Assembly (NCBI GenBank): GCA_038845975.1
Contig: JAWBQF010000015.1
Span: forward strand, 1-64,000
Direction: 5' to 3'
Source of the DNA: Candidatus Methanomethylicia archaeon
GTDB taxonomy: Archaea; Thermoproteota; Methanomethylicia; CALHIW01
Length of the DNA: 64,000 nt
Position numbers and translations under genes: made by a program. Below are positions 11,593 through 56,321 of this stretch, one piece after another (within the stretch, counting starts at the first letter, position 1; each line of letters starts with the position of its first letter). The notes beneath the pieces are model-generated. The model made no database searches. It worked only from the letters and a program-made list of their open reading frames with translations, and was not told where the DNA came from.

Positions 11593-11781
11593 TCAAGTAA
11601 ACGCTATAAGCCTAGCTAAATTAACTACATGTTTAACATCTCCAAGATTATAAGTAATCATCATAATACCTAAAGTATCCAGAATATGGAGCTTTACCTC
11701 ATTAATAACTTCCCTAGAAGTACTCTCTAACCTAAAATTATAAGTAAACTTGGGAGATTTATGGGATATAATTTCAACCAT
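11593..11781 (-). pseudogene. 5' fragment duplicate of MmgE/PrpD gene
   Basis: KLHILDTLGIMMITYNLGDVK vs KLHVLDTLGIMMATYNLEDVK in 30548..31951. Confidence 0.85.
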
Positions 11782-15987: not shown

Positions 15988-16051
15988 ACCTAATACTTTA
16001 CATGGAATTTTCCTATCTCTATATGAAAACATTATTCTATCATATCTAAAC

Positions 16052-16555
16052 TTATCTAGTTAATAGCTTCCCTTTAAGTAGTGGTATTACTCCACCAGCT
16101 TTCAATATTTCAATCATTTGCCTGGATAATGTTTTGGTTTTAAATATTTGTCCTGTATTTAGGTTTCTTATTTCACCTATTTCAAGATTAACCTCCAGTA
16201 AATCCCCATTACTAACTCTTTTACTTATCTCCTCACATATTACTACCGGTAAACCTAAACTTATAGCGTTCCTGAAGAAGATTCTAGCAAAGCTTTCAGC
16301 TATAACTACTGATATTCCTAATGCCTTTAATGCTGCAGGGGCTTGTTCTCTACTGGATCCACATCCAAAGTTTCTACCAGCTACTATAATGTCTCCGGGC
16401 TTTACCTTTCTTGAGAATTCAGGATCTATAGGTTCTAATGCGTAATTCTTCAATTCATCTATAGGTAGTATAAGGTATTTACCTGGAGTGATAACGTCTG
16501 TATCTATATTATCTCCAAACTTCCAGGCCCTACCCTTAAATATTAGTTGAGACAT
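16052..16555 (-). CDS. leuD: 3-isopropylmalate dehydratase/homoaconitase family small subunit
   Basis: [32 protein letters not shown]; substrate specificity not certain. Confidence 0.9.
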
Positions 16556-16563
16556 AATTTCAC

Positions 16564-17817
16564 CTATAGTTTTCTAGGATCTGTTATTTCCCCCATTATG
16601 GCTGAGGCTACTACTGTAGCTGGGGAAGCTAAATAAATTTCTGAATCTGGACTCCCCATACGTCCCTTAAAGTTTCTATTTGCACTACTAATACATTTCT
16701 CACCTGAAGCTAGAAGCCCTAAATGGCTTCCAAAACATGGACCGCATGCAGGGAAACAGATGGAAGCTCCTGCTTCAAGAAATATGTTGATTATTCCATT
16801 ATTTAGAGCCCTCATATATATCTCCCTAGAGGCTGGAACTATAATCATTCTAACATCTGGATGAATTTTCTTACCCTTTAATATTTCAGCAGCTATACTT
16901 AAATCTTCAAATCTACCATTTGTACATGATCCTAGAAATGCTTGATCTATTTTTATCCCTTCAACTTGAGATACTGGCTTAACATTATCTACACTATGTG
17001 GACAGGCAACTTGAGGCTCTAAATCACTTACATCGATGTAATATGTTTTATCATAGGTAGCATCAGGATCACTTTTAACTGGAGTAAACGGCTTCCCAGT
17101 TCTAGCCTTTACATATCCTACTGTTTTCTCATCCGGGGGTATGAAGGAGAATTTAGCCCCTATCTCAACAGACATGTTTGTAAGTGTCATTCTAGAATCT
17201 ATACTCATCTCATCAATAACTGGCCCTGTAAACTCTATTGACTTATACTGGGCAACATCAACCCCATACTTTCCAGCAATATGTAGAATTATATCCTTAG
17301 ACATAACTCTGTAGGGCATTTTTCCTGAAATTATGAATCTTACTGTTTCAGGAACTTTAAACCATAATTCACCTGTAGCCCAGACAACAGCCATTTCAAT
17401 AGCTCCAATACCTGTACTAGCAGCTCCGAACGCACCGTAGGTTATTGTATGGGAATCTGTTCCAACAATTAATTCTCCAGGTCTTACATGTCCCTTTTCA
17501 GGCATAACTTGATGACATATACCTTCCTTGATATCGTAAAAGTATTTTATCCCTTGTTCTTTAACGAAGCTTCTAATGGATTTATGGACTTCAGCAGCCA
17601 TCACTGTTGGAGGAGGAGTATAGTGATCAAACAGTATCACTATTCTTTCAGGATCCCAAACCCTTTTAACACCGGCCTCCCTGAAGTGTAAGAGTACTCT
17701 TCTTGATTCTTCATGTGACATAGCTACATCTATTCTAGCAGTAACATAATCTCCAGCGTAAACCTCTCTTGAACCTGAAGCTCTTGCAAGTATTTTCTCA
17801 GCTATAGTCATACCCAT
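16564..17817 (-). CDS. leuC: 3-isopropylmalate dehydratase/homoaconitase family large subunit
   Basis: DH, GICHQ, DSHT, GSCTNGR, CGPCFG, NRNFKGRMG. Confidence 0.92.
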   Translation of the reverse strand: MGMTIAEKILARASGSREVYAGDYVTARIDVAMSHEESRRVLLHFREAGVKRVWDPERIVILFDHYTPPPTVMAAEVHKSIRSFVKEQGIKYFYDIKEGICHQVMPEKGHVRPGELIVGTDSHTITYGAFGAASTGIGAIEMAVVWATGELWFKVPETVRFIISGKMPYRVMSKDIILHIAGKYGVDVAQYKSIEFTGPVIDEMSIDSRMTLTNMSVEIGAKFSFIPPDEKTVGYVKARTGKPFTPVKSDPDATYDKTYYIDVSDLEPQVACPHSVDNVKPVSQVEGIKIDQAFLGSCTNGRFEDLSIAAEILKGKKIHPDVRMIIVPASREIYMRALNNGIINIFLEAGASICFPACGPCFGSHLGLLASGEKCISSANRNFKGRMGSPDSEIYLASPATVVASAIMGEITDPRKL

Positions 17818-18933
17818 TTAATCCACCTGCTTCACAATGCTTGCTATAGCATCTCCTACTTCACTTGTCCTTGAGGAACCTCCTAAATCAGGTGTTCTCA
17901 CCCTACCATCAGCTAAAACCCTTTTAACGGCTTCCTCTATTCTTAAAGCAGCTTTCCTAGCAGATTCATCCTCATACTTATCTCCAAGCCATTCAAGCAT
18001 CATCTTAGCTGATAGTATAGTAGCTATAGGATTTGCAATTCCCTTACCAGCTATGTCTGGAGCTGTACCATGTATAGGTTCAAACATAGCCTTTCCATCA
18101 CCGATTTCCCCAGATGGAGCCATCCCCATACCTCCCTGCAGTACTGAAGTTAAATCGGTAACTATATCTCCAAACATGTTTGTTGTAACACAAACATCGT
18201 ATCTTTCCGGTCTTGTAATAATCCACTGGGTAAATGCATCTACATATGCATAATCTTTATCAACATCACTATACTTTCCAGCTACCTCATCAAATATCTG
18301 CCTAAAGAATAGGCATCCCCTTAAAACATTACTCTTATCAATGCATGTTACCCTCCTCCTACCATCAATAGGTGCCCCATTCCTCCTCCTACATAGCTCA
18401 AAAGCATACTTAATAACTCTTTCAGAACCTCTCCTCGTAACAACCCTTACATCAATAGCAAGCTCTCTAGTCTCACCACGTTCAAGAAAGCCTCTAATAG
18501 GTATGTAGAGGTCTTCAGTATTTTCTCTAACAATAACGAAATCTATATCTTTAGGCTTCTTCCCAATTAGTGGACATGGAACACCGTCATAAAGCTTTAC
18601 AGGTCTTACATTAGCATAGAGGTCAAGCCCAAATCTAAGACTAAATATAACCTTATTACCTACTGATGTTCCGTCAGGATAATTTACACCAGGAATCCCA
18701 ACAGCACCAAACAGTATAGCATCGGAATCCTTACATATGGAATAAGCTTCAGGAGGCCATTCCTCTCTTCTTCCGGTTTTCAGCCAATATGTAGCTCCTC
18801 CCTCTACAGGAATAAATTCAAAGTTTAGATTTGAAAGCTCTTCTACAGCTCTTAACACTTTCAAAGCTTCTGGAATAACTTCACGGCCAATTCCATCACC
18901 AGGTAAAAAAGCTATCTTATATTTTCTAGGCAT
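17818..18933 (-). CDS. isocitrate/isopropylmalate (beta-decarboxylating) dehydrogenase
   Basis: PGDGIGREV, YANVRP, RENTE, DKSNV, NMFGDI, FEPIHGTAPDIAG. Confidence 0.92.
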   Translation of the reverse strand: MPRKYKIAFLPGDGIGREVIPEALKVLRAVEELSNLNFEFIPVEGGATYWLKTGRREEWPPEAYSICKDSDAILFGAVGIPGVNYPDGTSVGNKVIFSLRFGLDLYANVRPVKLYDGVPCPLIGKKPKDIDFVIVRENTEDLYIPIRGFLERGETRELAIDVRVVTRRGSERVIKYAFELCRRRNGAPIDGRRRVTCIDKSNVLRGCLFFRQIFDEVAGKYSDVDKDYAYVDAFTQWIITRPERYDVCVTTNMFGDIVTDLTSVLQGGMGMAPSGEIGDGKAMFEPIHGTAPDIAGKGIANPIATILSAKMMLEWLGDKYEDESARKAALRIEEAVKRVLADGRVRTPDLGGSSRTSEVGDAIASIVKQVD

Positions 18934-18979
18934 GCATAGAAGATGCTACCTACTATTTAAGTTTTTACTCTAGTTTTAT

Positions 18980-19673
18980 GGCTTTGTTAACTTTAGATTT
19001 ATTTGGGAGTTCTCGCCCTTATTATGGTGAATTCATGTCTAAAGTTATTAGGTTTTTAGGGAGAGAACTCCATTTATTCTAGTTGTTTATGGTGCTTATA
19101 TATATTTTCGTTCTTCTAGAATGGCTTCAGATATTTAGTTTATTGTTGTTAGGAGTTATTCTATATTATCGTGGTTTATCTTAATCTTCTATTGATGGGA
19201 GGGATGTTAGGATTATGGTTGATGATACTATTATTAGTGTAGGTTCTAAGAGTAAGGTTATTTATGTTGCGTTTGAGCCATTATTGAGGAGGATTCTCTA
19301 CATATAGGTTTGTGATGTTGCAAACATACTTACATCACTAGCATTCCTTAAAAAGATTAAAACTACCTATGGTTCTAATATAATTGTATTAAGTGATGGT
19401 GCTCAATACTATAAAGCATCATGCAGAATATTAAAATTAAAACATGGATTGTATAGTTTAGAGGTTAGGAATCTAATGGAGTGAATCATACAGTATATTA
19501 AGGATAGAACTAGAATATTCGATAATTACATGCCATATATGAAAATAAATTTGGTAATGAACAGCTATTAATGCTTATAAAATCAATAGAGAGCAAACAT
19601 GCAATAAGAAGATAAAGCTAAGAATCCATAGAAACAAAATAGAGGTAATAAACATGCTTAAATTAACAAAGTC
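18980..19673 (+). mobile_element. IS6-family element A, copy 5
   Basis: Left TIR ggctttgttaactt, right aaattaacaaagtc; relic IMVDDTII and IKDRTRIFDNYMP; no TSD. Confidence 0.88.
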
Positions 19674-19723
19674 TGAGTAAATTATGAAAACGATATTAAG
19701 TCACAAAACTAGTTAATAAAATC

Positions 19724-20113
19724 CTACTTTAGGACTTCTTCAACGTCTCTTAAACACTTTTCAACTTTTCTCAACTCCTCTTTAGCAATATCCCAATCTA
19801 TTATTCCATTGTAAAATCCATGTATATGTAAGTTAGATTCTCTAGCTCCAAATCTGTCGTAGAGCCCTAATTTATTAACTAAATCATTCTCCATACTTAG
19901 TCTCCATAGCTTATCCCTCCTCTCCTTATAGCTTTCCCCTCTTCCTAACCCTTTCCCCTCTAGAAGAGCATCAGTAGCTTTAACTATAGCTAACCAACCC
20001 TTCTCACAGGCATTTCTAAGAAGCATTAAATCCCTCTTTGTAAAGCTTTCCCTAAGCTCCTCTATAGCCTTAAAATAGGCATTCCAAGCATCTATTAATA
20101 GAGATTCATTCAA
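19724..20113 (-). CDS. PaREP1/HEPN-like protein
   Basis: ACEKGWLAIVKATDAL and LHIHGFY signature. Confidence 0.8.
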   Translation of the reverse strand: MNESLLIDAWNAYFKAIEELRESFTKRDLMLLRNACEKGWLAIVKATDALLEGKGLGRGESYKERRDKLWRLSMENDLVNKLGLYDRFGARESNLHIHGFYNGIIDWDIAKEELRKVEKCLRDVEEVLK

Positions 20114-20452
20114 AACTTATTCACCATAAATACAGAGTAATATACTAAAATTTAAATCTTAATTAGTCTTAAGTACATGAAGAACATTAGCACATACGAA
20201 AAGTAATAGGATAACTCTAACAATTCATCATTATTGTTTAAATGAAGATGAATTAAATCTAAAAACTGTATGAATGATGGCTTGAGTTCATAAGACACTT
20301 ATAAATTAAGTTTATTTAGCTGATACTTGTCAATTACTAGTGATTTACAGGGTCTCCAAATAGCATTAATGTGCCATGTAGAAAGTTTATATTTCATCTA
20401 ATATGTAAGTTACCGTTTCCATTATGCTTAATGATTAGTATTCAATTAATAA

Positions 20453-21598
20453 TTACTCTCTAATTAAGATAATTAATGGAATAGTTGTACAGGCTATAAT
20501 TCCAGTAAATAGAAATGCTGAATTAAATCCGTAGAGATCCGTTAGTAATCCGAAGACGTATGGACCTATTGAGCTTCCTAGAAACCCCATAGCATTATAT
20601 AAGCCGAGAGCTGTACCAATAGTAGATGGAGAGGAAGTATCTGTAACGAAAACAGAGAGAACTGTTAATATAGCTCTAATCATAAAGCCTATAAGTATAA
20701 GACTGATGAAGAATAGCATAGGGGATTTAGCTAGTGGAAGAATACTAGATATAAATGCTATTACTAAAAGGCCGGTAATGGATACGTACTTCTTCCCAAT
20801 TTTATCAGCTAGAAGTCCTCCAAGAGGTCCAGCTGGAATTTCAAATAGTGGTAAAGCCATAAATATAATGTTTGCAAATAGGAGACTTAACTTAGCCTCT
20901 ACTGTAAGATAGGTTGGTATAAATGTGTTTAGACTAAAGTATGCAGCTAAAACTAGGAAATGTATTATTGTAAGGTTAGTTAAGGATTTACTCTTAAAAA
21001 CGCTCATATACGGAATTCTATAATTCCTAATATTTCCAATATGCTTTCTATTCTCCTTTACTAGTCTCCAGAAAAGAATAGTACCTATTAATCCAGGTAT
21101 GGTGAATGTGAGGAAGACTAAACGCCAGCTGTTCAGTTCAGCAATTAAGCCACCCAGAAAAACAGCAGTTACTGTACCAACACCAATACCTGAGGATGTT
21201 AAGCCTATAGGTTTACCCCTCTTGCCAGCTGGGAAAGCATCTGAAATTATGGATGTGCTTGCAGAGAAGTAGGTTCCAGCACCTAAACCAGTTAGGAAAC
21301 GGTAGAGAACCATATGAGTAAAATCACTACTTAAACCAATAAATATATTAGATAGAGAGGAAATAAGAAGACCGAGAACAATCATATATTTCCTCCCAAA
21401 TCTATCACTAAAAATACCTGCTGGAATCTGCATTATAGCATATGCTAAGAGGTAGCTGGACATTAGTAAGCCAGCTTCAGAATGAAGTATACTGAATTCA
21501 TTCTCAATAAGAGATAGAATAGGAGAAATGGAGAAACGATTAAGAAAAACTATAAACCATCCAAGCCAACATGCAGTTAATAATGAATATTTAAACAT
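20453..21598 (-). CDS. MFS transporter
   Basis: 12 TM pattern, GIFSDRFGRK motif A, second GLLADKIGKK. Confidence 0.92.
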   Translation of the reverse strand: MFKYSLLTACWLGWFIVFLNRFSISPILSLIENEFSILHSEAGLLMSSYLLAYAIMQIPAGIFSDRFGRKYMIVLGLLISSLSNIFIGLSSDFTHMVLYRFLTGLGAGTYFSASTSIISDAFPAGKRGKPIGLTSSGIGVGTVTAVFLGGLIAELNSWRLVFLTFTIPGLIGTILFWRLVKENRKHIGNIRNYRIPYMSVFKSKSLTNLTIIHFLVLAAYFSLNTFIPTYLTVEAKLSLLFANIIFMALPLFEIPAGPLGGLLADKIGKKYVSITGLLVIAFISSILPLAKSPMLFFISLILIGFMIRAILTVLSVFVTDTSSPSTIGTALGLYNAMGFLGSSIGPYVFGLLTDLYGFNSAFLFTGIIACTTIPLIILIRE

Positions 21599-21628
21599 TC
21601 AATTTACCTAAAACCATTCTAACACGAG

Positions 21629-23140
21629 TTAGTATTGTGCTGCTATATCCTTAACATCATTCCAGAACTCTATAGCTGCTTCAAAATCTATGGGTTCATG
21701 TCCTCCCTGTCTCTTAGCTTTTTCAAGATATCTGTATAGTAAGTCCTTAAATTTAGGATGTGAACATTTATCTATAATTGCTTTTGCCCTCTCTACTGGT
21801 GGTAGCCCTCTCAGATCAATCCATCCATTCTCAGTAACAATAACATCAACATCGTGTTCAGGTATATCAACATGGGAGATTATTGGAACTATTCTAGGTG
21901 TTTTAAGATCACCTGTTGTTGAGGGCATAGCTAAAATTGTTAGATATGCTGATCTCGTAAACTCTATAGATCCACCTACACCTCCATACATGTTACCTCT
22001 TATATGGGATACGTTAACATGACCATATACATCGATTTCTATAGCTTGCTGTATTGAAACAGTATTAAATCTAGATATAATCTCAGGATTATTCGTAACC
22101 TCGTAGGGCCTTAACACAACGCACTTCTTAACCTCCTCTATTTCCTCATACAGTTTACTTCTATATTCAGCTTCCCCGGGTAACGTATACAATACAGAGG
22201 ATGAAACTCCTTTAACAATACCGCTTAAAGCTAACGGTATCCATGTAGTTGATAAGGCCTCAGCCCAGATGTTTAAGCTAGTAGGTAATTCAGATATTTT
22301 CCTTGCAAGAGCACTTGACATAGGCCCAGCTCCAGGCTGGAAAACAGTATACTCATCCTTAAGGTTAGGATCCCTACTAAACTCATAATTAAGGAAATCC
22401 AGTATGTTTTCAGCTATACGTAGATCGGTTTGAGTAATACCACTATATAGTGGAGTAGCATCCTCAGACTTGCTTAAAACTATAGCTTCTATCTTCGACT
22501 CAGGACACTTAATAAATGGATGTCCAATTCTATCCAGTACTCTTGAAATAGGGATAGGCTGGCCTGTTGCTGGGAGATAAATGTCATGTAGTCCAGTTAA
22601 GTTAGGTCTTAAAAGATTTACCTCAACAATTAGTTTATTACAGGACTCTATAAATGCAGGCACTACATCAACAGATAGTGATGGAATAATATATCCCTCC
22701 CTAGTTATACCTGCTGCCTCAATAATAGCTACATCTATTCGACCTATAGATCTTAAATAAATCCCCTTCCTAACCCATCGTGAATGCTCATAAAGCCCCA
22801 TATCAAACAATCCAAATTTACGAGTATTTACAGCTTCACGTAGCTTCCTAGATGAGCCACCGAACGGAATCCTCATAACCATCGTTACCGAGGAGATCCA
22901 CTCATCAAACTCAGGAGTTGTACTACCAGCCTGAAAAACTACTAAGGAAAACTTTTCACCAGTCTTAGAGATATAGTCATGTAAAGCCTTAGGCACTTCC
23001 TTAGGTAAGGATGTTCCAGCCATTCCAGCAAAAGCTATAATTCCAGTTTTAGGAATATACTTCTCAACGACCTCATATGGATCCAGAATTCTAGATCTTA
23101 ATGATTCGCATTCCACTCTAGAATACATAAGATCGTGCAT
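21629..23140 (-). CDS. acetyl-CoA hydrolase / succinate CoA-transferase (family I)
   Basis: AIEIDVYGHVNVSH, GVGGS.EF.R, HVD.PEHDVDVIVTE.G.IDLRG, candidate catalytic Glu in WAEA. Confidence 0.88.
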   Translation of the reverse strand: MHDLMYSRVECESLRSRILDPYEVVEKYIPKTGIIAFAGMAGTSLPKEVPKALHDYISKTGEKFSLVVFQAGSTTPEFDEWISSVTMVMRIPFGGSSRKLREAVNTRKFGLFDMGLYEHSRWVRKGIYLRSIGRIDVAIIEAAGITREGYIIPSLSVDVVPAFIESCNKLIVEVNLLRPNLTGLHDIYLPATGQPIPISRVLDRIGHPFIKCPESKIEAIVLSKSEDATPLYSGITQTDLRIAENILDFLNYEFSRDPNLKDEYTVFQPGAGPMSSALARKISELPTSLNIWAEALSTTWIPLALSGIVKGVSSSVLYTLPGEAEYRSKLYEEIEEVKKCVVLRPYEVTNNPEIISRFNTVSIQQAIEIDVYGHVNVSHIRGNMYGGVGGSIEFTRSAYLTILAMPSTTGDLKTPRIVPIISHVDIPEHDVDVIVTENGWIDLRGLPPVERAKAIIDKCSHPKFKDLLYRYLEKAKRQGGHEPIDFEAAIEFWNDVKDIAAQY

Positions 23141-23422
23141 ATTTTACTATCATAGTTGAATATTTAAGTTTTGCTCAGCTTAAAATCCAGTAGCTTAGAA
23201 TTAAATGTTAGCTATAGCTTCCAGAGAGACTTGAAGTTAAGCCCTAACATTTATTTAGTGTAAAGTTATTAGCAATTATATTATGGTTATTAATAAACTT
23301 CTATAACTTCAAATATTAATGTCATTTAATTCGCTAATAACAGTAGGTACATCTAAATTTGGAGAGCTATAAAATATGTTTAGCTATTCTATAATGAATT
23401 CGATATGAAAAGAGGATTGGAT

Positions 23423-24274
23423 TTATTTCCTGGCAAGCATTAATATTTTCCTTGCTTTCTTCACTACAGCTTCATCGATCATTTTTCCCTCTAATGCTAC
23501 TGCTCCTAATCCCTTCCTAATAGCTTCTTCATATACATCTATAACTTTCCTAGCATACTCAACCTCGCTTTCAGATGGCGTGAAAACCTTATTTATAACA
23601 TCGATCTGGATAGGATGTATAGCGAATTTTCCAGTATACCCCATAGCCTTACTTATCCTCGCCTCCTTTTCTAAGCCTTCAACATCTTTGAAGTTTAAAT
23701 ATACTGTATCTAGTGCTTGAATACCTGCTGTTGCTGCAGCAAAGGATGTAATTATTTTCGGTATGAAGAGTATATCCTCTCTATCCTCACATCCAACATC
23801 AGCTGTAAAGTCAGCTCTTCCGAAACCTATGCTAATAACTCTATCGCTTGCCTTCACAATATCGTATATATTTCTTAAACCCTCAGAATCCTCTATAGCT
23901 ATTGATAGATATGTCTTCTTTAAGTTGTAATATCCTTCAAGAGATGTTAAAATCTTATCGATAGCTATTATGTCAATTGGACTTTTAACCTTAGGAATTA
24001 CTAGAAAGTCAGGAGAACCCTTAATAACTTCATATATATCTAGAACCCAATACTTCGTATCTAGACCGTTTATTCTTACCCCTCTATCCTTACCGCCCCA
24101 GTTTAGCTCTCTTAATGCTTTTAGAACCATACTTCTAGCTTCATCCTTCTGATCGATGGGTACTGAATCCTCCAAATCGAGGAGGATAGCATCAGGATTT
24201 AATGTACTTGCCTTCTCGATTCTGCTCCACTGATTTCCAGGAGTAAATAGTATACTTCTATAGAGTTTTACCAT
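23423..24274 (-). CDS. CitE-family CoA-ester lyase (citramalyl/malyl-CoA lyase-like)
   Basis: RSILFTPG, LDLEDSV, VRIN, IPKV, FGRADF, GKFAIHP.Q, GKMID. Confidence 0.92.
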   Translation of the reverse strand: MVKLYRSILFTPGNQWSRIEKASTLNPDAILLDLEDSVPIDQKDEARSMVLKALRELNWGGKDRGVRINGLDTKYWVLDIYEVIKGSPDFLVIPKVKSPIDIIAIDKILTSLEGYYNLKKTYLSIAIEDSEGLRNIYDIVKASDRVISIGFGRADFTADVGCEDREDILFIPKIITSFAAATAGIQALDTVYLNFKDVEGLEKEARISKAMGYTGKFAIHPIQIDVINKVFTPSESEVEYARKVIDVYEEAIRKGLGAVALEGKMIDEAVVKKARKILMLARK

Positions 24275-24281
24275 ATTCCCC

Positions 24282-24815
24282 CTACATTTTCTGTATCGGT
24301 ATCTTCCATCTTGGAAGATAATCTCTTCTATATACTAGAATTTCCCTTTCAGCCTCCATGACCAGCTGGCTGAAGTTGTTTTTATATGTACGATGCTTTA
24401 ATACAACTATTCCAACATCTTTTCTTTCAGGATGATCCTTAACGTCAATAACCTCCGTTTCAACATGTAATGTATCACCATCAAATACCGGAGCAAGCAT
24501 TCTTAGATTTCTTACCTCAACCTCACCAGCTATGTTTTTCAATTCCTCGGAAGCAATACCGCAGGTAATTCCGAAGGTCATGGTCATAACTAGAAGTGGC
24601 TGTTTAAATTCTGTAAGCTCCATGTACTCCTTATCAAAATGAAGTGGAGCCGTATTAAGGAGGAAGTGGGTGAAGAACAGATTATCCTGGTATGTTACTG
24701 TACGTCCATATCTATGTATTATCTTCTCCCCCTTAACAAAGTCCTCAAAGCATCTTCCAGGATATCCTGAAACAACGCTCATATCTTTCCGACCTTCTTT
24801 AAGTACTCCCTCCAT
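24282..24815 (-). CDS. MaoC-family (R)-specific hydratase
   Basis: GRCFEDF, GRTVT..DN..FT..LN..PLHFD, APVFDGDTL; real start probably ATG at 24782. Confidence 0.9.
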   Translation of the reverse strand: MEGVLKEGRKDMSVVSGYPGRCFEDFVKGEKIIHRYGRTVTYQDNLFFTHFLLNTAPLHFDKEYMELTEFKQPLLVMTMTFGITCGIASEELKNIAGEVEVRNLRMLAPVFDGDTLHVETEVIDVKDHPERKDVGIVVLKHRTYKNNFSQLVMEAEREILVYRRDYLPRWKIPIQKM

Positions 24816-25306
24816 GGAGAGTATCCCTTCTTATACATGAGGTTTGTCCTCTTAACCTCAGCTACAAGCTCTCCTCTTTGATTATATCCTCTATGAATCC
24901 ACGTTACTATTCCCGCTTCAGGTCTTGATTTAGATTCTCTCTTCATAACTACTTCAGCCTCAGTATATATCGTATCACCTGGATATACTGGCTTATAGAT
25001 TCTCTGATATTCAGCTCCAAGAAAGGCAACGGAGTTTTGGCTTGTATCCTTTACGCTCATAGCTACTATTGAGCTTAAAACTATTAATGGATGTATAATA
25101 ACTTTTCCGTATTCTGTATGTTTTGCGTACTCCTCATCTATGTATAGAGGTGTACAGTCACCCGTATAGGCTGTCCATATTAGGTTATCGTTTATTGTGA
25201 ACGTTCTTCCAGGCCATGACTTTATTTTCATACCGACCTCGAAATCCTCAAAGTATGGACCTTCAGCATCCCATGGGGGATACCATTTAGGTTTTTCTCC
25301 AGTCAT
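24779..25306 (-). CDS. MaoC-family (R)-specific hydratase
   Basis: YFEDFEVG, GRTFT..DN, PLYIDEEYA, PVYPGDTI, RESKSRP. Confidence 0.9.
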   Translation of the reverse strand: MTGEKPKWYPPWDAEGPYFEDFEVGMKIKSWPGRTFTINDNLIWTAYTGDCTPLYIDEEYAKHTEYGKVIIHPLIVLSSIVAMSVKDTSQNSVAFLGAEYQRIYKPVYPGDTIYTEAEVVMKRESKSRPEAGIVTWIHRGYNQRGELVAEVKRTNLMYKKGYSPWREYLKKVGKI

Positions 25307-25308
25307 AG

Positions 25309-26517
25309 CTATTCACCATATGATCTAGGCATACCGAGTACATTAATTGCTACATAGTTTAGAATCATATGTGGAGATATTTGTCCTGGACCTGCTCCAA
25401 GCTCAGCTCCTCTCCAAAGCCTCTCAATATCCATTTCACATGAATATCCATATCCTCCAAGCGTCCACATAGCTGCTCTACATGCCTGATATCCGGCTTC
25501 ACCAGCTAGATATTTAGCTATGTTTGCATAGTATCCTATCTCTCTTGGATTAGCGCCCTTCTCAAGAAGTTCAAGAGCCTTCCATTTAAGCCAGTCAGCA
25601 GCTTCAAGTCTCATCCATGCCTCAGCTAGTGGAAACTGTATACCCTGATATTTAGCTATTGGATCAGGTGGAAATACAACTCTCTGCTTAGCATACTCTA
25701 CAGCCTTCCTAATAGCATATCTACCTACAGCTACGCTTTGACCTGCAATCAATGTTCTTTCAGCATTGGCTTCCTCAAGAAGATGATAGAAGCCCCTCAT
25801 CTTATCTCCAAGTAAATTCTCAGCTGGAACAGGAAGATCCTCAATATACATGGTGCTTGTATCTATACATCTCCTAACATTATTTGGAATTTCCTCAAGC
25901 TTTATATGTTTACCCTTAGCCTCCCTAAGATCAATTAGGAAGAGGGCAATTCCAAGAGTTTTCTTCTCAACCTTATCATATGGAACAACTCTAGCAGCAA
26001 GCACTCCAAGATCCGAATGTCTAACACGCGATATAAATGTTTTCTGACCATTAATTATATAATAGTCCCCTTCTTGACGTGCAAAAGTACTAATTCTTGC
26101 AGTATTAAATCCTGCATGAGGTTCAGTAACAGCAAATACTTGAGCTCTCAGATTTCCCTTAGCGATTTCAGGTAAATACTTCTGCTTAACAGCTTCACCT
26201 CCATACTTTACAATTATATGATTATTAAAGAATGCAGCATGAACAGTATTCGAAGCAGTAATTCCTCCAGGGGAAGCAGCTATCTCCTCAAGAATTAGAT
26301 CACCCTCAACAAGCCCATAACCTGAGCCACCATATTCCTCAGGAATATTAGCCCCCATCAACTCATGCTTCTCCAAATCCTGAATAAACTCTAGAGGATA
26401 CTCTCTACGCTCATCCTTATCAATCCAGTAGCGAGAATCATACCTATCAACAATACTTCTCACAGTCTTCCTAATAACCTCAATTGCCTTTTTCCTCTCC
26501 TCAGAAATCCACCACAT
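25309..26517 (-). CDS. acyl-CoA dehydrogenase
   Basis: IPEEYGG, AVTEPHAG, INGQKTFIS, YAKQR.VF, QGIQFPLA, GGYGY. Confidence 0.93.
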   Translation of the reverse strand: MWWISEERKKAIEVIRKTVRSIVDRYDSRYWIDKDERREYPLEFIQDLEKHELMGANIPEEYGGSGYGLVEGDLILEEIAASPGGITASNTVHAAFFNNHIIVKYGGEAVKQKYLPEIAKGNLRAQVFAVTEPHAGFNTARISTFARQEGDYYIINGQKTFISRVRHSDLGVLAARVVPYDKVEKKTLGIALFLIDLREAKGKHIKLEEIPNNVRRCIDTSTMYIEDLPVPAENLLGDKMRGFYHLLEEANAERTLIAGQSVAVGRYAIRKAVEYAKQRVVFPPDPIAKYQGIQFPLAEAWMRLEAADWLKWKALELLEKGANPREIGYYANIAKYLAGEAGYQACRAAMWTLGGYGYSCEMDIERLWRGAELGAGPGQISPHMILNYVAINVLGMPRSYGE

Positions 26518-26571
26518 AATACCCCGAAAGTGTAATATTCTAGTCTATTTAAACCTTTCTATGCTTATATA

Positions 26572-27468
26572 GGTTCTGTCCGGATAAAAGTTGGGCTGGG
26601 TAATTAATATTATGGAGATTTCAGCCCAGTTAATAGATTGGGCTAGGAGCTAAATATCTTTAAGGAATGAAAAGCCAATTGAGCTGAAGGTGAAGGCTTT
26701 TTTGCTTTGGCTTATATTGAGCTCTTGTAGGAAAGCTTCTAAGCTTCTTGAGCTTTGGGGGGAATTTGCCAGCAAATCTAAACGAGTGGTGCTTGAAGTT
26801 CAGGGCCATTTTGGAAGCTAAAGAATGGGAGAAATCAAAGAAGCATGCAACCATAGCTATAGATGAGGCTTGCCTCAAGCTCAAGGGCGAGAAGTTTTGG
26901 GTTTATGCTTCCATAGACGTGGATACCAGGGAGCTTGTAGAGGTAAGGGCTTACCCTAATAGAAGTTCTTAGCAACTAGACTTTTCCTTCAAGAGTCTTA
27001 ATAAATGCCTAAAAAAGCAAGGATAATAAGGGATGGGGCGGGTTGGCTTAAGGAAGGGGTTGAGCAGCTAGGATTAGAGCAAGAGAATCAAAACATGGAG
27101 AAAGAAACTTGGTGGAAAGGCTCTTTGCCTACCTGAAGCATCGCACAAGTATATTCTTCCATAACATCAACGTTAACTTAAGGAATACCATTAGAAAGCT
27201 AAGAGAGAGCGAACAAAGCCTAGCTTTAAATCATCTAAACAGCTTCTAAGAGCTTTTAAGTTCTACTACGATTTTCTAGGCAAAGAAAGCAAGAGATGAC
27301 TTATTATCATATCATCATATTTAACATTAAAATTTTTTAAAAAAAAAGCAAGAGATGACTAAAATATTAAACTTTTTAAGATAAGAATAGCAACAATACT
27401 TTAGGAAGAGAAACAAAACAGGAAAAGATTAAACTTATTCTCAACCTATATCTTATCCGGACAGAACC
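26572..27468 (+). mobile_element. IS6-family element D with frameshifted transposase
   Basis: 16-bp TIR ggttctgtccggataa/ttatccggacagaacc; IAIDEACLKLKGEKFWVYASIDVDTREL DDE segment; no TSD. Confidence 0.9.
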
Positions 27469-27522
27469 TATGAGATATCCACTAAATTTATAAGGATGCT
27501 TGTGACTTGATATGGGGTAAAT

Positions 27523-28656
27523 ATGTATTCTAAAAGGGGAGCTTTAAAAACATCATATATAGCTATAGCAGTTATTGTAGTAATAATTATTGCCGCTCTC
27601 GCCATATACTTCACTACAGCACCAACTCCACCTCCAACAACTCCAACAACTCCACCTCCAACAACTCCAACAACTCCACCTCCAACAACTCCAACAACTC
27701 CTGCATTAACTGTGTGGAGGTGGGCTGTTCCTGATCCTGGGAGTATGGGGTATAGGATTACTACTTGGCCAACTTATGTTTTGATGCAAAAGATGCCTAA
27801 GTATACTCAGGTTATTCTTCCTTACTCTATTACATCAGCTGCTATAAAGGGGTTATGTAAGGGAGAGTCTGAGATTGTTTGGTGTGGATGTTTTGGGATG
27901 ATGCAGCTATATACATTTACAGGACCTTATGAAGGTTTTAAGCCTGAGGTTAAGAAGATGCCTGCTGCAGCTTGGTTTGCTACAACAACTGTTATTCACT
28001 TCTTAACAACACCTGAGAAGGCGAAGGAGATACGTTCATGGAAGGATCTTAATGGGAGAAATGTTTTCTTAGGTCCTTCAGGATATGTTACTCATCAAAC
28101 AATCAAATATGCATTGGAGAAGATGGGTATTAAGGTGAACCATATTGAGATGAGTACTGGAATGGCTGCTGAAGCTCTTAGGAAGGGGACTATTGATGTA
28201 TGCTATATGTATGGTTCCACTTCACTACCTACATGGGGTAAGGAGCTTGATATAGCGATAGATGTTGTAGTTATAAATCCAAGTGAGGAGGATATGAAGC
28301 TGATTGAGAAGGCCGGATTTGTAGTTGGAGTGTTGGATGCCAAGAAACTATATACGCAGGATGTTGGTGTAGATAAGATTTACGGTGTGAATGATCCTTG
28401 GGGTTATTGGGCTGGACTAGATATTCCTGAGGAGGATATTTACAATATGCTTAAAATACTTGAGGAAAATGTTAAGGATCTTAAGGATCCTGAATATGAT
28501 TATATTAGGGGGGTGGGATTTGCTGAGTGGCAGCAGGCAGGAGTAAAGGCTTCAATTGGTTATGGTGTTGGTATTAAGATTCATCCTGGGCTTGCTAAGT
28601 ATCTTAGGGAGAAGGGGTTATGGGATCCTGCATGGGATCAACACATAGCAAAATAA
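27523..28656 (+). CDS. TAXI-family TRAP substrate-binding protein
   Basis: N-terminal TM anchor, Pro/Thr linker, SWKDLNGRNVFLG, IHPGLAKYLRE; adjacent fused permease. Confidence 0.85.
   Translation: MYSKRGALKTSYIAIAVIVVIIIAALAIYFTTAPTPPPTTPTTPPPTTPTTPPPTTPTTPALTVWRWAVPDPGSMGYRITTWPTYVLMQKMPKYTQVILPYSITSAAIKGLCKGESEIVWCGCFGMMQLYTFTGPYEGFKPEVKKMPAAAWFATTTVIHFLTTPEKAKEIRSWKDLNGRNVFLGPSGYVTHQTIKYALEKMGIKVNHIEMSTGMAAEALRKGTIDVCYMYGSTSLPTWGKELDIAIDVVVINPSEEDMKLIEKAGFVVGVLDAKKLYTQDVGVDKIYGVNDPWGYWAGLDIPEEDIYNMLKILEENVKDLKDPEYDYIRGVGFAEWQQAGVKASIGYGVGIKIHPGLAKYLREKGLWDPAWDQHIAK
27625..27701 (+). repeat. 3.2 x 24-bp tandem repeat encoding TPPPTTPT linker
   Basis: Exact unit actccacctccaacaactccaaca at 27625, 27649, 27673. 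Confidence 0.95.
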
Positions 28657-30551
28657 ATAAAATAATCTCTATTTTTTTCTTTGCTGCATGTCTTACATAT
28701 TTAATGTTTTCAGTTCACTACTTCGCTACGGGCTTTGGTGGGGAGGAGCTTCTTGCTATTACTCTTGTTCCCATAGCATTCATCATATATGTACTTGATA
28801 GATTGAAACGTAATGCATTATATCCACGTTTAGGATTTAAAGCTAACCTAGTAATAGCGTCGATTCTTGTCTCTTTATGTATCTATATAAGCATATACAT
28901 GAGAACTGAATACATACCCATGCTTTATAGAGCGGGAGCATTTAACGTGATGGATAAAATACTTGCATTAATTATCTTCATATTGATGATGGAGTTTATG
29001 AGGAGGGAGCATTTAATCCTGTTCTTCCTTAATATAGCTTTAGTTATATACTGTGTTTACGGCTATGTTTTCCCTGGAATACTCTATGTTCCAGGTATTT
29101 CTTGGAGTAGAGTTGTGGAGTCGTCTACTCTCGAAATTAAGCTTGGAGTTTTTGGAACATATGCTCAACTAGGAGTTTCAATACTTGCTGCATTCCTACT
29201 CCTACAGGGTTTTGCTGCAGGGTTTGGTGTTCAGGATTCTATTGTTAGAACGATTGTATACACGTTTGGAAGGTATAGGAGGCTTGTTCCACAGTCAGCT
29301 GTTGTTAGTAGTATGGCTGTAGCTATGGTTAGTGGGAGTGGGAGTGCTAATGTTGCTATAACAGGTCAGTTTACAATTCCATTGATGAAGAGATATGGAT
29401 TTCACCCAAGATATGCTGGAGCTACAGAAGCATCGGCATCTCTAGGAGGATTAATAATGCCTCCAGTAATGGCTGCAGCAGCATTCCTAATGGCTGATTT
29501 TATAGGTGTAAGCTACTGGCAGGTTGTTGTTAGAGGGTTTGCCCCTGCAATAGTATACTACGTTACAATTGCTCTCTCAGTATATCTTGTAGCTATAAGA
29601 TATGTTGGAAAGTCTAATGGGGGAGGAGATGAATCCTTCACTCTACCGAAACCCAGTAGATCAGATGCAATTAATACCCTAATATTCTTTGCATGTATAG
29701 TTATTCTATGCTATTTAATGGGTGTTTTATGGATGGCTGCTGAGGCAGCTGCATTTAATACTGTAACAGTATTTTTAGTTTCAACGTTAATAATCCAAAT
29801 AATATTTACAAAGCCTAAACCATTAACAATAGCTAGCTGGTTTAGAAATTCTGTAGAGAGCTTCGGTAAGATAACTATGGAACTACTTCTCCTACTAGCA
29901 TCTCTCGGCATTCTAATAAATCTTTTCACAGTTAGTGGATGGATTATGAAGCTAGGCATGATGTTGATGACGATAGGTGGGGAGAATATATTGTATCTAA
30001 TAGCTATAGCTTTTGCTTTAGGAATATTTCTAGGTCTCGGCTTACCTCCATCAGCAACATATCTATTAGCAGCTGTAATAATAGCTCCAGTAATGGTTAG
30101 GCTTGGATTTAATCCATGGGTTGCTCACTTTTATGCATTCTTCCTAGGAATAATTTCAGAATATACACCTCCAACATCTCTTACAGCTGCAGTTGCATCT
30201 AGAATTTCAGGCGCAGGCTTTATGGAGACAATGTTTGAAACCCTACGCTTATCCCTACCTGTATTTCTATTAACATTTGCAATATTTAAGTGGTCTTATC
30301 TAGTAGTTGAGCCTGGATTAATGCAGCTTTACTCTCTTGGAGTTGTAGCTACTGGATGTATTGGATCAGCATGCTCCTTCTACGCTAAGTATAGTAAGAA
30401 TAGAGTTCTAGACATATTGTTAAGATCAGTATCAATGCTTCTAGCATTAATAATCCTATTTCATCCAGACCCTACATATACATCAATATCCATCCCAATA
30501 AGCATACCAATAATAGTATTAGGAATATATAGAACTAGGAAAATGTATTAG
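28620..30551 (+). CDS. TRAP transporter 4TM/12TM fused permease
   Basis: SGSGSANV..TG.FTIPLM, GGLIMPPVM, GLPPSATY, TPP motifs. Confidence 0.92.
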   Translation: MGSCMGSTHSKINKIISIFFFAACLTYLMFSVHYFATGFGGEELLAITLVPIAFIIYVLDRLKRNALYPRLGFKANLVIASILVSLCIYISIYMRTEYIPMLYRAGAFNVMDKILALIIFILMMEFMRREHLILFFLNIALVIYCVYGYVFPGILYVPGISWSRVVESSTLEIKLGVFGTYAQLGVSILAAFLLLQGFAAGFGVQDSIVRTIVYTFGRYRRLVPQSAVVSSMAVAMVSGSGSANVAITGQFTIPLMKRYGFHPRYAGATEASASLGGLIMPPVMAAAAFLMADFIGVSYWQVVVRGFAPAIVYYVTIALSVYLVAIRYVGKSNGGGDESFTLPKPSRSDAINTLIFFACIVILCYLMGVLWMAAEAAAFNTVTVFLVSTLIIQIIFTKPKPLTIASWFRNSVESFGKITMELLLLLASLGILINLFTVSGWIMKLGMMLMTIGGENILYLIAIAFALGIFLGLGLPPSATYLLAAVIIAPVMVRLGFNPWVAHFYAFFLGIISEYTPPTSLTAAVASRISGAGFMETMFETLRLSLPVFLLTFAIFKWSYLVVEPGLMQLYSLGVVATGCIGSACSFYAKYSKNRVLDILLRSVSMLLALIILFHPDPTYTSISIPISIPIIVLGIYRTRKMY

Positions 30552-31951
30552 GTAAGAATTTCAACTATCTCTCTAACACTACATTTTTCAATGTTTAATA
30601 TTTTATCTACTACCTCCCTTCCTACATCTCTATACTTAGACTGCTTTATATTATCCATGAACTTGGTTATTACCTCATCTCTTGTTAGTGGGTTTTTAGG
30701 TGTTCCCTTATGCTCTATGACTTCCTCCTCATATGTTCTACCATTCCTCAATGTAATTCTAGCTTTAGCTGGAATTACCTCACTTCCACCATACTTATCA
30801 TATCCCTTATCATATACAGCTTTAATTCTAGATGTATAATTCAGTATTTCAGGATTTCTTATTGATTCATCTGTAAAGTCCCATAGCCCAACCCATCCTC
30901 TTCTTAATGCAACAACTACAGTATATGGGAGGCTGAACTTCGCACCGTATGGGGTTTGAGGCTTTATCTTCTCCTCGTAGGGCTCAACTACAAGATTAAT
31001 TGCAACCTTAGGTACATAGTATATGCATTCTTCAATATCTTCAAGTTTAACATCATACTTCCTCTTAAATGCTAATGCAACATCTATTGAGGAATGGGTT
31101 GCATGACATGTTGGATAGGGCTTAATAGATATGTTTAAAGTCTCCCACTTCTCCCCTAATCCTTCAGTAGCTTGCTTGAGATCGAATTTATCCCCCTTAA
31201 GATATGCATTGAATAATCCTTGTCTCCCCTCAAATACTTGTAGTGGACCTCTACATCCCTCCCTAGCTAGTAGTGCGGCCAGTATTCCTGCATGAGAGGC
31301 AAAGCCTGGATGCATAGGCTTAACCCATACACCTTCAGGTATACATTGAAGTATTCCTGATGATAGACTTCCAGCTATACCTAAAGCCCATGCTAACTGC
31401 TCAATAGATAGCTTCATTAACCTACCGGCAATCAATGCAGATCCGAAAACACCAATAGCTGATGTTGGATGTATACCTCGAATATGGAATAGCCATGGAG
31501 CAACTAATCCAAGCCTGGAGTTAACCTCGTAAGCTGCAATTACAGCCTCCAGAAACTCTCTCCCAGATGCATTAGTTATCTCCCCTACTGCTAATGCTGT
31601 AGGTATAGCTGTACAGCTTTGATGTATTCCTGATCCTAGATGTGTATCATCATAGTCTACACTATGAGCCATAACAGCATTAGCTATAACAGCATTCAGA
31701 GCTGATACTTTAAATCCATATCCAACAACAGTACTTTCAGGGGAGCCGCCTAAAAGCCTAATTACATTAACAACACGTTTAACGTCTTCAAGATTATATG
31801 TAGCCATCATAATACCTAAAGTATCCAAGACATGAAGCTTAGCTCTACTAACAACTTCTTCAGGAATATCCTTCAACCTTAAATTATAAGTAAACTCAGA
31901 AAACTTATAGGATATAGTTTCACCCATATTTACCACATAACCACTATGCAA
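30548..31951 (-). CDS. MmgE/PrpD family protein
   Basis: LDTLG, AHSVDYDDTH, HPTS, KPMHPG, KPYPTCHATH, AKFSLPY; start likely 31927. Confidence 0.92.
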   Translation of the reverse strand: MHSGYVVNMGETISYKFSEFTYNLRLKDIPEEVVSRAKLHVLDTLGIMMATYNLEDVKRVVNVIRLLGGSPESTVVGYGFKVSALNAVIANAVMAHSVDYDDTHLGSGIHQSCTAIPTALAVGEITNASGREFLEAVIAAYEVNSRLGLVAPWLFHIRGIHPTSAIGVFGSALIAGRLMKLSIEQLAWALGIAGSLSSGILQCIPEGVWVKPMHPGFASHAGILAALLAREGCRGPLQVFEGRQGLFNAYLKGDKFDLKQATEGLGEKWETLNISIKPYPTCHATHSSIDVALAFKRKYDVKLEDIEECIYYVPKVAINLVVEPYEEKIKPQTPYGAKFSLPYTVVVALRRGWVGLWDFTDESIRNPEILNYTSRIKAVYDKGYDKYGGSEVIPAKARITLRNGRTYEEEVIEHKGTPKNPLTRDEVITKFMDNIKQSKYRDVGREVVDKILNIEKCSVREIVEILT

Positions 31952-55070: not shown

Positions 55071-55074
55071 TCAG

Positions 55075-56241: not shown

Positions 56242-56321
56242 AAAATAACCCTTCTAAACCAGTAGACTTTAAGAGAGTTTAAAAATTTTAGCATAATCAT
56301 ACTATTATTGTACATGTAAGC

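Follow-up and report, generated by a model that had tools for sequence, protein, structure and literature searches.

A candidate archaeal gene cluster for the CoA-dependent breakdown of branched C5 dicarboxylates in a member of the Thermoproteota

The window analysed here, a stretch of 64,000 nucleotides from contig JAWBQF010000015.1 of a Candidatus Methanomethylicia archaeon (contig C15 in our numbering), contains a row of genes for an acyl-CoA dehydrogenase (ACAD), two MaoC-type hydratase subunits, a CitE-family lyase and a CoA-transferase, together with transporter genes and an MmgE/PrpD gene. The locus raises the question of whether these genes form one pathway and, if so, which acid this pathway degrades and through which CoA ester. 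A first-pass annotation of the DNA had proposed a linked module for CoA-dependent C5-dicarboxylate catabolism resembling the itaconate clusters of Yersinia and Pseudomonas, a proposal upheld by the orthology of the ACAD and the recurrent clustering described below. We consider, with moderate confidence, that the cluster is probably an archaeal catabolic module for branched C5 dicarboxylates, most likely methylsuccinate and possibly itaconate or mesaconate, which would be degraded as C4-CoA esters; all substrates, the way the flux runs, the donor of CoA and what the MmgE/PrpD protein does are what we infer.

The acyl-CoA dehydrogenase and its bacterial counterparts

A five-gene itaconate-methylsuccinate cluster of Pseudomonas aeruginosa and Cupriavidus necator encodes Ich, Mcd (PA0879), Msi (PA0881), Ict and Ccl (PMC12290011). 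The first-pass annotation had noted that the Pseudomonas operon carries an ACAD and an MmgE/PrpD gene; the functions of these two proteins are no longer open, having been assigned experimentally in 2025 (PMC12290011). In particular, in vitro work identified the Pseudomonas and Cupriavidus ACADs as (RS)-methylsuccinyl-C4-CoA dehydrogenases that form mesaconyl-C4-CoA (Gonner et al. 2025, PMC12290011).

Upon comparison of the window ACAD with that of a P. plecoglossicida locus, in which the gene order is hydratase, ACAD, MmgE/PrpD, family III CoA-transferase and CitE, we found the two proteins to be 43.6% identical and reciprocal best hits, with a score of 327 bits as opposed to 193 bits for the next protein in the genome. 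The link to the characterised PA0879 runs through this P. plecoglossicida orthologue, whose neighbouring lyase matches the solved 'acyl-CoA lyase beta chain' 8khl/9nzb (324 bits), and this P. plecoglossicida locus is a Pseudomonas-type itaconate cluster. A tree of 46 rows was computed with a quick method from 35 hand-chosen loci, with a midpoint root, only the host genome's paralogues as outgroup and three over-long open reading frames (ORFs) trimmed to their last 405 residues; in it, the 36 family members formed one clade (SH-aLRT 100), which a branch of 0.72 sets apart from the host's ten other ACADs, and the window ACAD fell inside an archaeal subclade with Caldarchaeaceae. Both the reciprocal best hits and the clade support a relationship at the level of orthologues with the ACAD of the Pseudomonas cluster, to which the first-pass annotation had compared the locus. 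By these comparisons, the window ACAD and the Pseudomonas/Cupriavidus (RS)-methylsuccinyl-C4-CoA dehydrogenase belong to one orthogroup, and the window protein is predicted to be an Mcd-like methylsuccinyl-C4-CoA dehydrogenase. Its closest homologues form 31 clusters at 52-97% identity, which, where named, come from metagenome-assembled genomes of Caldarchaeum, 'Nitrososphaerota', 'Desulfurococcales' and 'archaeon HR01'; the next tier, at about 45% identity, is a broad family that is mostly bacterial with some haloarchaeal members.

The active site points in the same direction. In 29 of 29 aligned family members, the pair E253-R254 (window numbering) was invariant and the canonical C-terminal YEG glutamate was absent. 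This Glu253-Arg254 layout, which we take to be the isovaleryl-CoA dehydrogenase arrangement for acyl chains branched at C3, fits the methylsuccinyl-C4-CoA ester. PMC12290011 does not take up the ACAD Glu-Arg layout. Two other assignments were rejected: a catalytically dead protein, as the missing YEG glutamate might suggest, because E253-R254 is family-invariant and the bacterial members are active (PMC12290011), and the C1-specific Mcd of the ethylmalonyl pathway, because that enzyme (6es9) scored 77 bits and was the weakest among the 57 matches listed.

The direction of the reaction also had to be considered, since CarC and Clostridium Bcd were among the closest solved relatives of the window ACAD and some pairs of ACAD and electron-transfer flavoprotein (ETF) elsewhere are enoyl-CoA reductases. 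The cluster could then start from pyruvate and acetyl-CoA, or from imported itaconate or mesaconate, and pass through mesaconyl-CoA to methylsuccinyl-CoA with the ACAD and reduced ETF, and methylsuccinate, serving as an electron sink, would be exported by the MFS transporter. Ferredoxin-linked enzymes are numerous in the genome, with AFOR and a POR-like gene in the window itself, five ETF gene pairs are present, and the reduction of itaconate to methylsuccinate is known from gut bacteria (PMC12290011). We nevertheless regard this reductive direction as highly improbable: the genome contains a homologue of heme-copper oxidase subunit I (COX1, 210 bits), with a weakly COX2-like neighbour, which would be an oxidative electron outlet, and no ETF gene adjoins the cluster. 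Additionally, TRAP systems are uptake systems, and the TRAP genes are kept beside the operon. The characterised ACAD orthologues are likewise oxidative and catabolic (PMC12290011). Because of the COX1 homologue and the five ETF pairs, the description of the host as an 'anaerobic archaeon' in the first-pass annotation was left unsupported. That the host belongs to the Archaea, in the GTDB phylum Thermoproteota, follows from whole-genome kinship, by which its class holds 62 species representatives and its phylum also contains Candidatus Caldarchaeum genomes, and from typically archaeal families within the window (PaREP1, an archaeal ATPase with DUF234, AFOR and DUF134). The genome comprises 2.77 Mb in 76 contigs and is 93% complete.

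The gene row and the CoA ester on which it would act

All genes named in the first-pass annotation were recovered, at the positions given there, by ORF and family searches, and its remark that CitD and CitF, the partners of citrate lyase CitDEF, are absent held for the whole 93%-complete genome, in which PF06857 and PF04223 were not found. The genes of the locus are as follows (window coordinates).

25309-26517, minus strand: ACAD, with three ACAD Pfam domains
24779-25306, minus strand: MaoC1, matching MaoC_dehydratas and MC_hydratase
24282-24782, minus strand: MaoC2, matching MaoC_dehydratas and MC_hydratase (ORF up to 24815; likely start, the ATG at 24782)
23423-24274, minus strand: CitE-like lyase, HpcH_HpaI (148.8 bits)
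21629-23140, minus strand: CoA-transferase of the acetyl-CoA hydrolase/transferase family, AcetylCoA_hyd_C and AcetylCoA_hydro
20453-21598, minus strand: MFS transporter, MFS_1 (226 bits)
17818-18933, minus strand: LeuB-like (IPMDH-like)
16564-17817, minus strand: LeuC-like
16052-16555, minus strand: LeuD-like
27523-28656, plus strand: TAXI binding protein, NMT1_3 (46.9 bits)
28620-30551, plus strand: fused TRAP permease (DctQM type), TIGR02123 (406.3 bits; cutoff 320.65)
30548-31927, minus strand: MmgE/PrpD, with both MmgE/PrpD domains (ORF up to 31951)

The minus-strand row is tightly packed at its start: the ACAD stop lies 2 nt from the MaoC1 start, the MaoC1 stop is overlapped by the MaoC2 ATG as ATGA, and MaoC2 and CitE are 7 nt apart. 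Further on, 282 nt separate CitE from the CoA-transferase and 30 nt the CoA-transferase from the MFS gene. The TAXI gene is divergent from the ACAD over a 1-kb spacer, and the TRAP permease lies tail-to-tail with the MmgE/PrpD gene. Within the spacer (26748-27249), two small ORFs gave only the impression of a decayed transposase and had no Pfam match at E <= 1e-4. The tRNA and Rfam scans of the window returned no match, and a promoter and terminator scan with a bacterial model, which found 37 promoter-like sites compared with a mean of 49 in shuffled sequence, was not used.

Twelve metagenome loci with an ACAD match were found, and all six that reach far enough contain ACAD-MaoC1-MaoC2-CitE. 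Their arrangements are as follows.

L120: ACAD identical in protein (100%), with 99.4% DNA identity across the stretch that aligns; gene row as in the window
L121, L122 and L128: ACAD about 95%; PrpD, TRAP and TAXI divergent from ACAD-MaoC1-MaoC2-CitE-CoA-transferase-MFS, up to the contig limits
L123 and L124: ACAD 77%; ACAD-MaoC1-MaoC2-CitE-PrpD all on one strand and followed by a luciferase-like gene; CoA-transferase on the opposite strand
L127: ACAD 77%; a distant TAXI-TRAP pair and a double MaoC gene, then ACAD-MaoC1-MaoC2-CitE
L125 and L126: ACAD 76%; the contigs end inside or just past MaoC1
L129 to L131: ACAD 41-43%; distant homologues

Across the metagenome contigs and Caldarchaeaceae, the core ACAD-MaoC1-MaoC2-CitE with the dedicated CoA-transferase, often with MmgE/PrpD, occurred in three arrangements. 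Since the same genes recur together in relatives, their grouping is more than chance, and the co-occurrence that the first-pass annotation had named as a check was found both in the metagenome loci and in Caldarchaeaceae genomes. In a sample of the phylum, 9 of 401 genomes, including the host, had an ACAD match at E <= 1e-90, and six of these were among the 17 genomes of the Caldarchaeum-containing family. In three of the six, ACAD-MaoC1-MaoC2 was accompanied by a CoA-transferase no more than 2 kb away and by an MFS gene, CitE or both at distances of up to about 7 kb, and two had CitE, PrpD and ACAD together (the L020 locus and the G112 locus gave identical ORF scores). Within the host class, an ACAD match at E <= 1e-60 was present in 3 of 62 genomes, namely the host and two distant homologues (41-45%) that are basal in the family; the single congeneric genome, which is 62% complete, had no ACAD match. 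This patchy distribution fits lateral transfer.

The ACAD was also scanned against species-representative genomes, and the flanks of the best 80 loci from other species, out of at least 600 stretches, were probed by tblastn with the window proteins. CitE was found beside 27 of these 80 loci, MmgE/PrpD beside 22, both beside 16 and MaoC beside 4, and 46 had none of the three. The order ACAD, MmgE/PrpD, one intervening gene and CitE was seen in Pseudomonas, Halomonas, Variovorax and others, the intervening gene in P. plecoglossicida being the family III CoA-transferase.

The two MaoC proteins together cover a solved double-hot-dog enzyme. As evident from the alignments, MaoC1 matched residues 6-147 and MaoC2 residues 188-318 of the beta-methylmalyl-CoA dehydratase 8hgn, a mesaconyl-CoA hydratase, and both matched MC_hydratase (PF19315; Pfam gathering score 26.5) with 87.8 and 42.9 bits, respectively, although they are encoded by two genes and not fused. 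The window hydratase is therefore predicted to be a heteromeric two-subunit hot-dog enzyme. MaoC1 carries the motif D..PLY and MaoC2 the motif N..PLH, the single-subunit RipB/Ich-like forms, taken from two Gemmatimonadota clusters, having N..P[IL]H; MaoC2, the counterpart of the C-terminal half, is probably the catalytic subunit. In L121 and L122, the ORFs orthologous to MaoC2 have a length of 164 aa. A fused relative of 354 aa (P0241) is 57% identical to MaoC1, and its C-terminal half is 45% identical to MaoC2. A further protein, P0242 (646 aa), from the diatom Thalassiosira exigua, combines an N-terminal CitE-like lyase with a C-terminal mesaconyl-CoA-hydratase-like hot-dog domain and is 41% identical to MaoC1; this record is flagged as low quality by its source. 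The RipB_Ich model (NF038241, cutoff 340) gave 126.5 bits with MaoC1 and 90.2 bits with MaoC2, and the haloarchaeal Mch model gave 90.5 and 44 bits. The window hydratase is not orthologous to either the Pseudomonas or the Yersinia enzyme.

The window lyase is predicted to be an (S)-citramalyl-CoA lyase, with a beta-methylmalyl-CoA lyase as the alternative; sequence alone leaves the substrate unfixed. Its model scores were 241.5 bits with TIGR01588, 217.4 bits with RipC_Ccl (NF038242, cutoff 375) and 70.4 bits with haloarchaeal Mcl; for comparison, RipC_Ccl gave 153.4 bits with a Pseudomonas-type cluster lyase and 172.3 bits with the host's second CitE paralogue. Among solved structures, the best match was the malyl-CoA/beta-methylmalyl-CoA lyase Mcl1 of Methylobacterium (5ugr, 187.5 bits), followed by the Rhodobacter enzyme (4l9y, 161.6), CLYBL (142.5), RipC (3qll, 141.6) and the Pseudomonas-type lyase (8khl, 71.9). 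Its clade is small and separate, with 15 clusters at an identity of at least 53% and 275 proteins at E <= 1e-40, and the protein is not orthologous to the Pseudomonas or Yersinia lyases. CitE genes of relatives were rejected as its orthologues: 8 of 40 same-class relatives had a CitE match, and all eight were nearer to the host's second CitE.

This second CitE lies on contig C13 (L011, C13:49000-67328) beside genes for alpha and beta subunits that are succinyl-CoA-synthetase-like and carry a citrate-binding domain, a block that looks like a citryl-CoA synthetase/lyase or a malate thiokinase/malyl-CoA lyase. A ScpC-type CoA-transferase and a 4-hydroxybutyryl-CoA-dehydratase-like gene (HpaB family) are found nearby, and the orthologues of this CitE in eight class relatives adjoin fumarase, fumarate reductase or oxaloacetate decarboxylase genes.

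For the CoA-transferase, which is AarC/ScpC-like, we predict a dicarboxylate:acyl-CoA CoA-transferase activity. Its best PDB matches were 2g39 (247 bits) and AarC (233 bits); Yersinia RipA (3qli) matched with 75 bits over the C-terminal part only. On the ScpC equivalog model (NF053853, cutoff 500), the window copy scored 340.6 bits and failed, and the ScpC-type paralogue on C13 scored 522.8 bits and passed. All seven full-length archaeal CoA-transferases linked to such a cluster in other organisms were nearer to the window copy than to the C13 copy, and the window protein therefore represents a dedicated CoA-transferase subfamily that is not orthologous to the Pseudomonas or Yersinia enzymes.

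Put together, these assignments suggest the following route. The diacid would be imported by the TAXI-TRAP system, the MFS transporter or both, and the MmgE/PrpD protein would turn a free-acid isomer into the form taken by the CoA-transferase. The AarC/ScpC-like CoA-transferase would then form the C4-CoA ester, with succinyl-CoA or acetyl-CoA as the donor, and the ACAD would oxidise methylsuccinyl-C4-CoA to mesaconyl-C4-CoA and pass the electrons to one of the host ETFs. Finally, MaoC1 and MaoC2 would jointly hydrate mesaconyl-C4-CoA to (S)-citramalyl-CoA, which the CitE-family lyase would split into pyruvate and acetyl-CoA.

The lyase and hydratase could also serve the C1 ester, as in the lower ethylmalonyl-CoA pathway or the haloarchaeal methylaspartate cycle, where methylsuccinyl-C1-CoA or mesaconate would be converted via mesaconyl-C1-CoA and beta-methylmalyl-CoA into propionyl-CoA and glyoxylate. 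The lyase is nearest to 5ugr, with 4l9y next (the second CitE paralogue reached 128.5 bits with 5ugr), the MaoC pair maps to both halves of 8hgn and matches MC_hydratase, and the genome holds two methylmalonyl-CoA-mutase homologues, all of which would suit this route. We nevertheless judge it unlikely. The ACAD is orthologous to a C4-specific enzyme and is only remotely similar to the C1-specific Mcd, and its active-site layout, the isovaleryl-CoA dehydrogenase arrangement, suits chains branched at C3. Furthermore, RipB_Ich and RipC_Ccl outscored the haloarchaeal Mch and Mcl models for MaoC1, MaoC2 and the lyase alike. Searches of the 93%-complete genome for malate synthase (PF01274) and carboxyltransferase (PF01039) gave no match, so that glyoxylate and propionyl-CoA would be without their usual sinks; pyruvate and acetyl-CoA need none. 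On account of the ACAD orthology and layout, the model scores and these two absences, pyruvate and acetyl-CoA are the most likely, although not proven, products. Of the two product pairs that the first-pass annotation had left side by side, this one is thus favoured, and glyoxylate with propionyl-CoA is less so.

The MmgE/PrpD protein and the transporters

In vitro, the bacterial MmgE/PrpD protein acts as an (S)-(R)-methylsuccinate isomerase (Msi) and has no activity with aconitates (PMC12290011). The best PDB matches of the window protein were IDS-epimerase (129.5 bits), the B. subtilis IRG1 homologue and cis-aconitate decarboxylase. In a tree of 28 rows built with a careful method, after removal of two duplicate rows and trimming of three over-long ORFs to their last 465 residues, the window protein grouped with those of L121, L123, L124, G236 and G391 in an archaeal clade (support 100/98), apart from a 14-row bacterial Msi clade (100/100). 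The linkage to the ACAD is shared: the two genes lie in the same operon in L123 and L124, where MmgE/PrpD directly follows CitE on the same strand, are divergent neighbours in G236 and G391, and are 4 kb apart in the window. The likeness to the Pseudomonas cluster drawn in the first-pass annotation therefore stands as regards the linkage with an ACAD and does not extend to orthology with bacterial Msi.

The catalytic residues give a similar picture. The Msi positions His88, Glu/Asp91, His102, His152, Lys202 and Lys266 are conserved in the window protein and the other five members of the archaeal clade; these residues and Tyr148, the second catalytic base, follow the P. aeruginosa numbering (PMC12290011). 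In place of Tyr148, the archaeal clade has Ile (window), Leu or Gln, both in the MAFFT alignment and in a profile-profile alignment (probability 100%, 25% identity). In the IDS-epimerase register, a clade-invariant His lies at Tyr145, and there is no Tyr in either register. Our best guess is that the window protein isomerises or epimerises a C5 diacid in its free form. We consider it an unlikely proposal that the Tyr-less clade with its His/Lys cradle carries out a reaction new to the family, such as a one-base allylic isomerisation of itaconate, mesaconate or citraconate, or a decarboxylation of aconitate to itaconate; if it did, the cluster would give thermophilic Thermoproteota a funnel to pyruvate and acetyl-CoA for several unsaturated C5/C6 acids in addition to methylsuccinate.

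The missing Tyr also bears on whether the cluster serves another substrate altogether, such as a substituted succinate or a C6 acid (for example, aconitate converted to itaconate by the Tyr-less MmgE/PrpD), or an HMG-CoA/leucine-type route. The M. tuberculosis operon Rv2498c-Rv2504c, which would be the model for the latter, encodes an ACAD, a MaoC hydratase, a CitE lyase and a CoA-transferase. The clade without the epimerases' second base, its solved relatives among the cis-aconitate decarboxylases, the placement of the archaeal lyase, hydratase and transferase in clades of their own and the fact that every equivalog score was below its cutoff are consistent with such a substrate. On the other side, the ACAD orthology indicates methylsuccinyl-CoA, a leucine route requires methylcrotonyl-CoA carboxylase, for which the genome yielded no carboxyltransferase domain, and the bacterial isomerase is inactive with aconitates, although it belongs to a different clade (PMC12290011). 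We therefore regard another substrate as rather improbable and keep to the C4 route for branched C5 diacids.

Several of our results weigh against this C4 route. The ScpC, TIGR01588, RipC_Ccl and RipB_Ich scores of the window CoA-transferase, lyase and hydratase are all below the cutoffs. The best solved relative of the lyase is a malyl-CoA/beta-methylmalyl-CoA lyase, ahead of CLYBL and RipC; all solved relatives of the hydratase act on the C1 ester, and the solved-structure ranking of both enzymes thus favours the beta-methylmalyl-CoA route. The Tyr148 position is lost in the MmgE/PrpD protein, and a Pseudomonas isomerase scored higher with the host's other PrpD paralogue, on contig C7 (189 bits), than with the window copy (158 bits). 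In addition, no ETF gene is present in the window, and the gene absences used above are provisional because the genome is 93% complete.

With regard to the transporters, the assignment to the TAXI-TRAP type is based on the fused DctQM permease, which scored above the TIGR02123 cutoff, and the adjoining TAXI binding protein. The latter passed NMT1_3 (cutoff 27) and was below the cutoff of TIGR02122 (48.8 bits; cutoff 84.35); it has an N-terminal helix, predicted to be a membrane anchor, and a Thr/Pro-rich linker. The divergent arrangement of TAXI and ACAD was also seen in L121, L122 and L128, and the TRAP permease is kept at 81-83% identity in L121 and L128, the TAXI-TRAP pair beside the cluster in L127 being a distant one. 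An MFS gene follows the CoA-transferase in L120, L121 and L122 (77-99% identity); L020 and L111, both from Caldarchaeaceae, likewise have one close to the cluster. In the Protein Atlas, PrpD, whose record starts at residue 9, and TAXI were matched at the family level only.

In a same-class relative (L015, G015:C1:39000-58000), the citryl-CoA-synthetase/lyase-like genes have as immediate neighbours a TAXI gene (41% identical), a gene for a fused TRAP permease (54%) and an MmgE/PrpD gene (37%) that retains the Tyr; in this class, a transporter-PrpD module is therefore also present independently of the ACAD operon. Within the window itself, a 62-aa ORF (11593-11781, minus strand) beside a DUF362/Fe-S gene (12049-13203) matches residues 9-68 of the MmgE/PrpD protein with 60% amino acid identity, and the nucleotide identity is 76% over 250 nt including upstream sequence. 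Because DUF362 lies directly beside the full PrpD gene in L121, this ORF looks like the remnant of a rearranged second junction copy.

Relation to known systems and neighbouring genes

We compared the archaeal cluster with three known systems and found it to be similar but not identical to each. Like the Pseudomonas/Cupriavidus cluster, it has a same-orthogroup ACAD, an ACAD-linked MmgE/PrpD, a CitE-family lyase and an enoyl-CoA hydratase, and a TRAP-type itaconate uptake system is known from Pseudomonas as well (PMC12599236). In contrast to the family III enzyme of the Pseudomonas cluster, the window CoA-transferase belongs to the acetyl-CoA hydrolase/transferase family; the window lyase reaches 72 bits with 8khl, compared with 324 bits for the Pseudomonas orthologue; and the host genome has no match to the Pseudomonas-type hydratase at E <= 1e-5, the window having a two-subunit hot-dog hydratase instead. 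The other-clade MmgE/PrpD without Tyr148, the TAXI-type transporter and the archaeal host are further differences.

The Yersinia pestis ripABC cluster also combines a CoA-transferase of the acetyl-CoA hydrolase/transferase superfamily, a MaoC hot-dog hydratase and a CitE lyase, and RipB_Ich and RipC_Ccl were the best or nearly best curated matches of the window hydratase subunits and lyase, all below the equivalog cutoffs. Unlike the Yersinia system, however, the window has a transferase nearer to AarC/ScpC (233-247 bits) than to RipA (75 bits), a heteromeric hydratase and, beyond the three genes of Yersinia, an ACAD and an MmgE/PrpD (PMC12290011).

The third comparison concerns Mch and Mcl as they occur in the ethylmalonyl-CoA pathway, in the 3-hydroxypropionate bi-cycle and in the haloarchaeal methylaspartate cycle, which provide the closest solved hydratases (8hgn and 4e3e) and lyases (5ugr and 4l9y); like Mch, both window MaoC subunits match the Pfam family MC_hydratase. 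Whereas Mch is one fused polypeptide of about 350 aa, the window hydratase is encoded by two genes, and the equivalog models of haloarchaeal Mch and Mcl gave low scores (90.5, 44 and 70.4 bits), with the window ACAD not being the C1-specific Mcd.

The pathway is known in bacteria, and its archaeal version would combine an orthologous dehydrogenase with a different CoA-transferase family, a split hydratase, a lyase and an MmgE/PrpD of their own clades and a TAXI transporter. The first-pass annotation knew of no description of such an arrangement in archaea, and none turned up in the full-text literature searched, although further papers or supplements could hold one. Four supplementary files of PMC12290011 contained no mention of Archaea, Thermoproteota, Caldarchae or Halobacter, and the survey in that report places methylsuccinate isomerase almost exclusively in Pseudomonadota, which account for 96.2% of the 1767 species with the enzyme. 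Only in bacteria has the CoA-dependent degradation of itaconate and methylsuccinate been established so far. If our reading is true, Thermoproteota archaea, in a lineage with 62 species representatives and in part of the Caldarchaeaceae, use these diacids in a way that would add a third, in part convergent, type to those of Pseudomonas and Yersinia. Branched C5 diacids would then be substrates in the habitats of these archaea, and the cluster would offer a defined set of proteins for probing the Tyr-less MmgE/PrpD clade.

The LeuB-, LeuC- and LeuD-like genes, which the first-pass annotation had described as next door and had kept within the coordinates of its island, probably do not belong to the pathway. 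LeuC and LeuD are the only copies in the genome, no other aconitase-family genes having been seen there, and LeuB has one paralogue, beside an HMGL-like gene on contig C8. The leuBCD block sits between the arms of an inverted repeat some 600 nt long (15397-15988 and 18979-19589; six collinear arm pairs, 80-97% complementary), and in the near-identical metagenome contig L120 (99.4% and 97.9% DNA identity over two aligned stretches) it lies in the opposite orientation, which points to an invertible segment or an assembly alternative. Since LeuCD are single-copy and the segment is flipped in L120, we judged catabolic partnership unlikely and take leuBCD to be probably housekeeping genes next door; a role in citramalate or citraconate conversion keeps some small likelihood. 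The block also follows the MFS gene in L122 and is absent from the more distant clusters.

Elsewhere in the window, at 54666-58126, a thiolase gene and its DUF35/OB-fold partner (ChsH2-type) adjoin a two-subunit CoA_trans transferase (AtoDA-like), which together make up a further acyl-CoA module.

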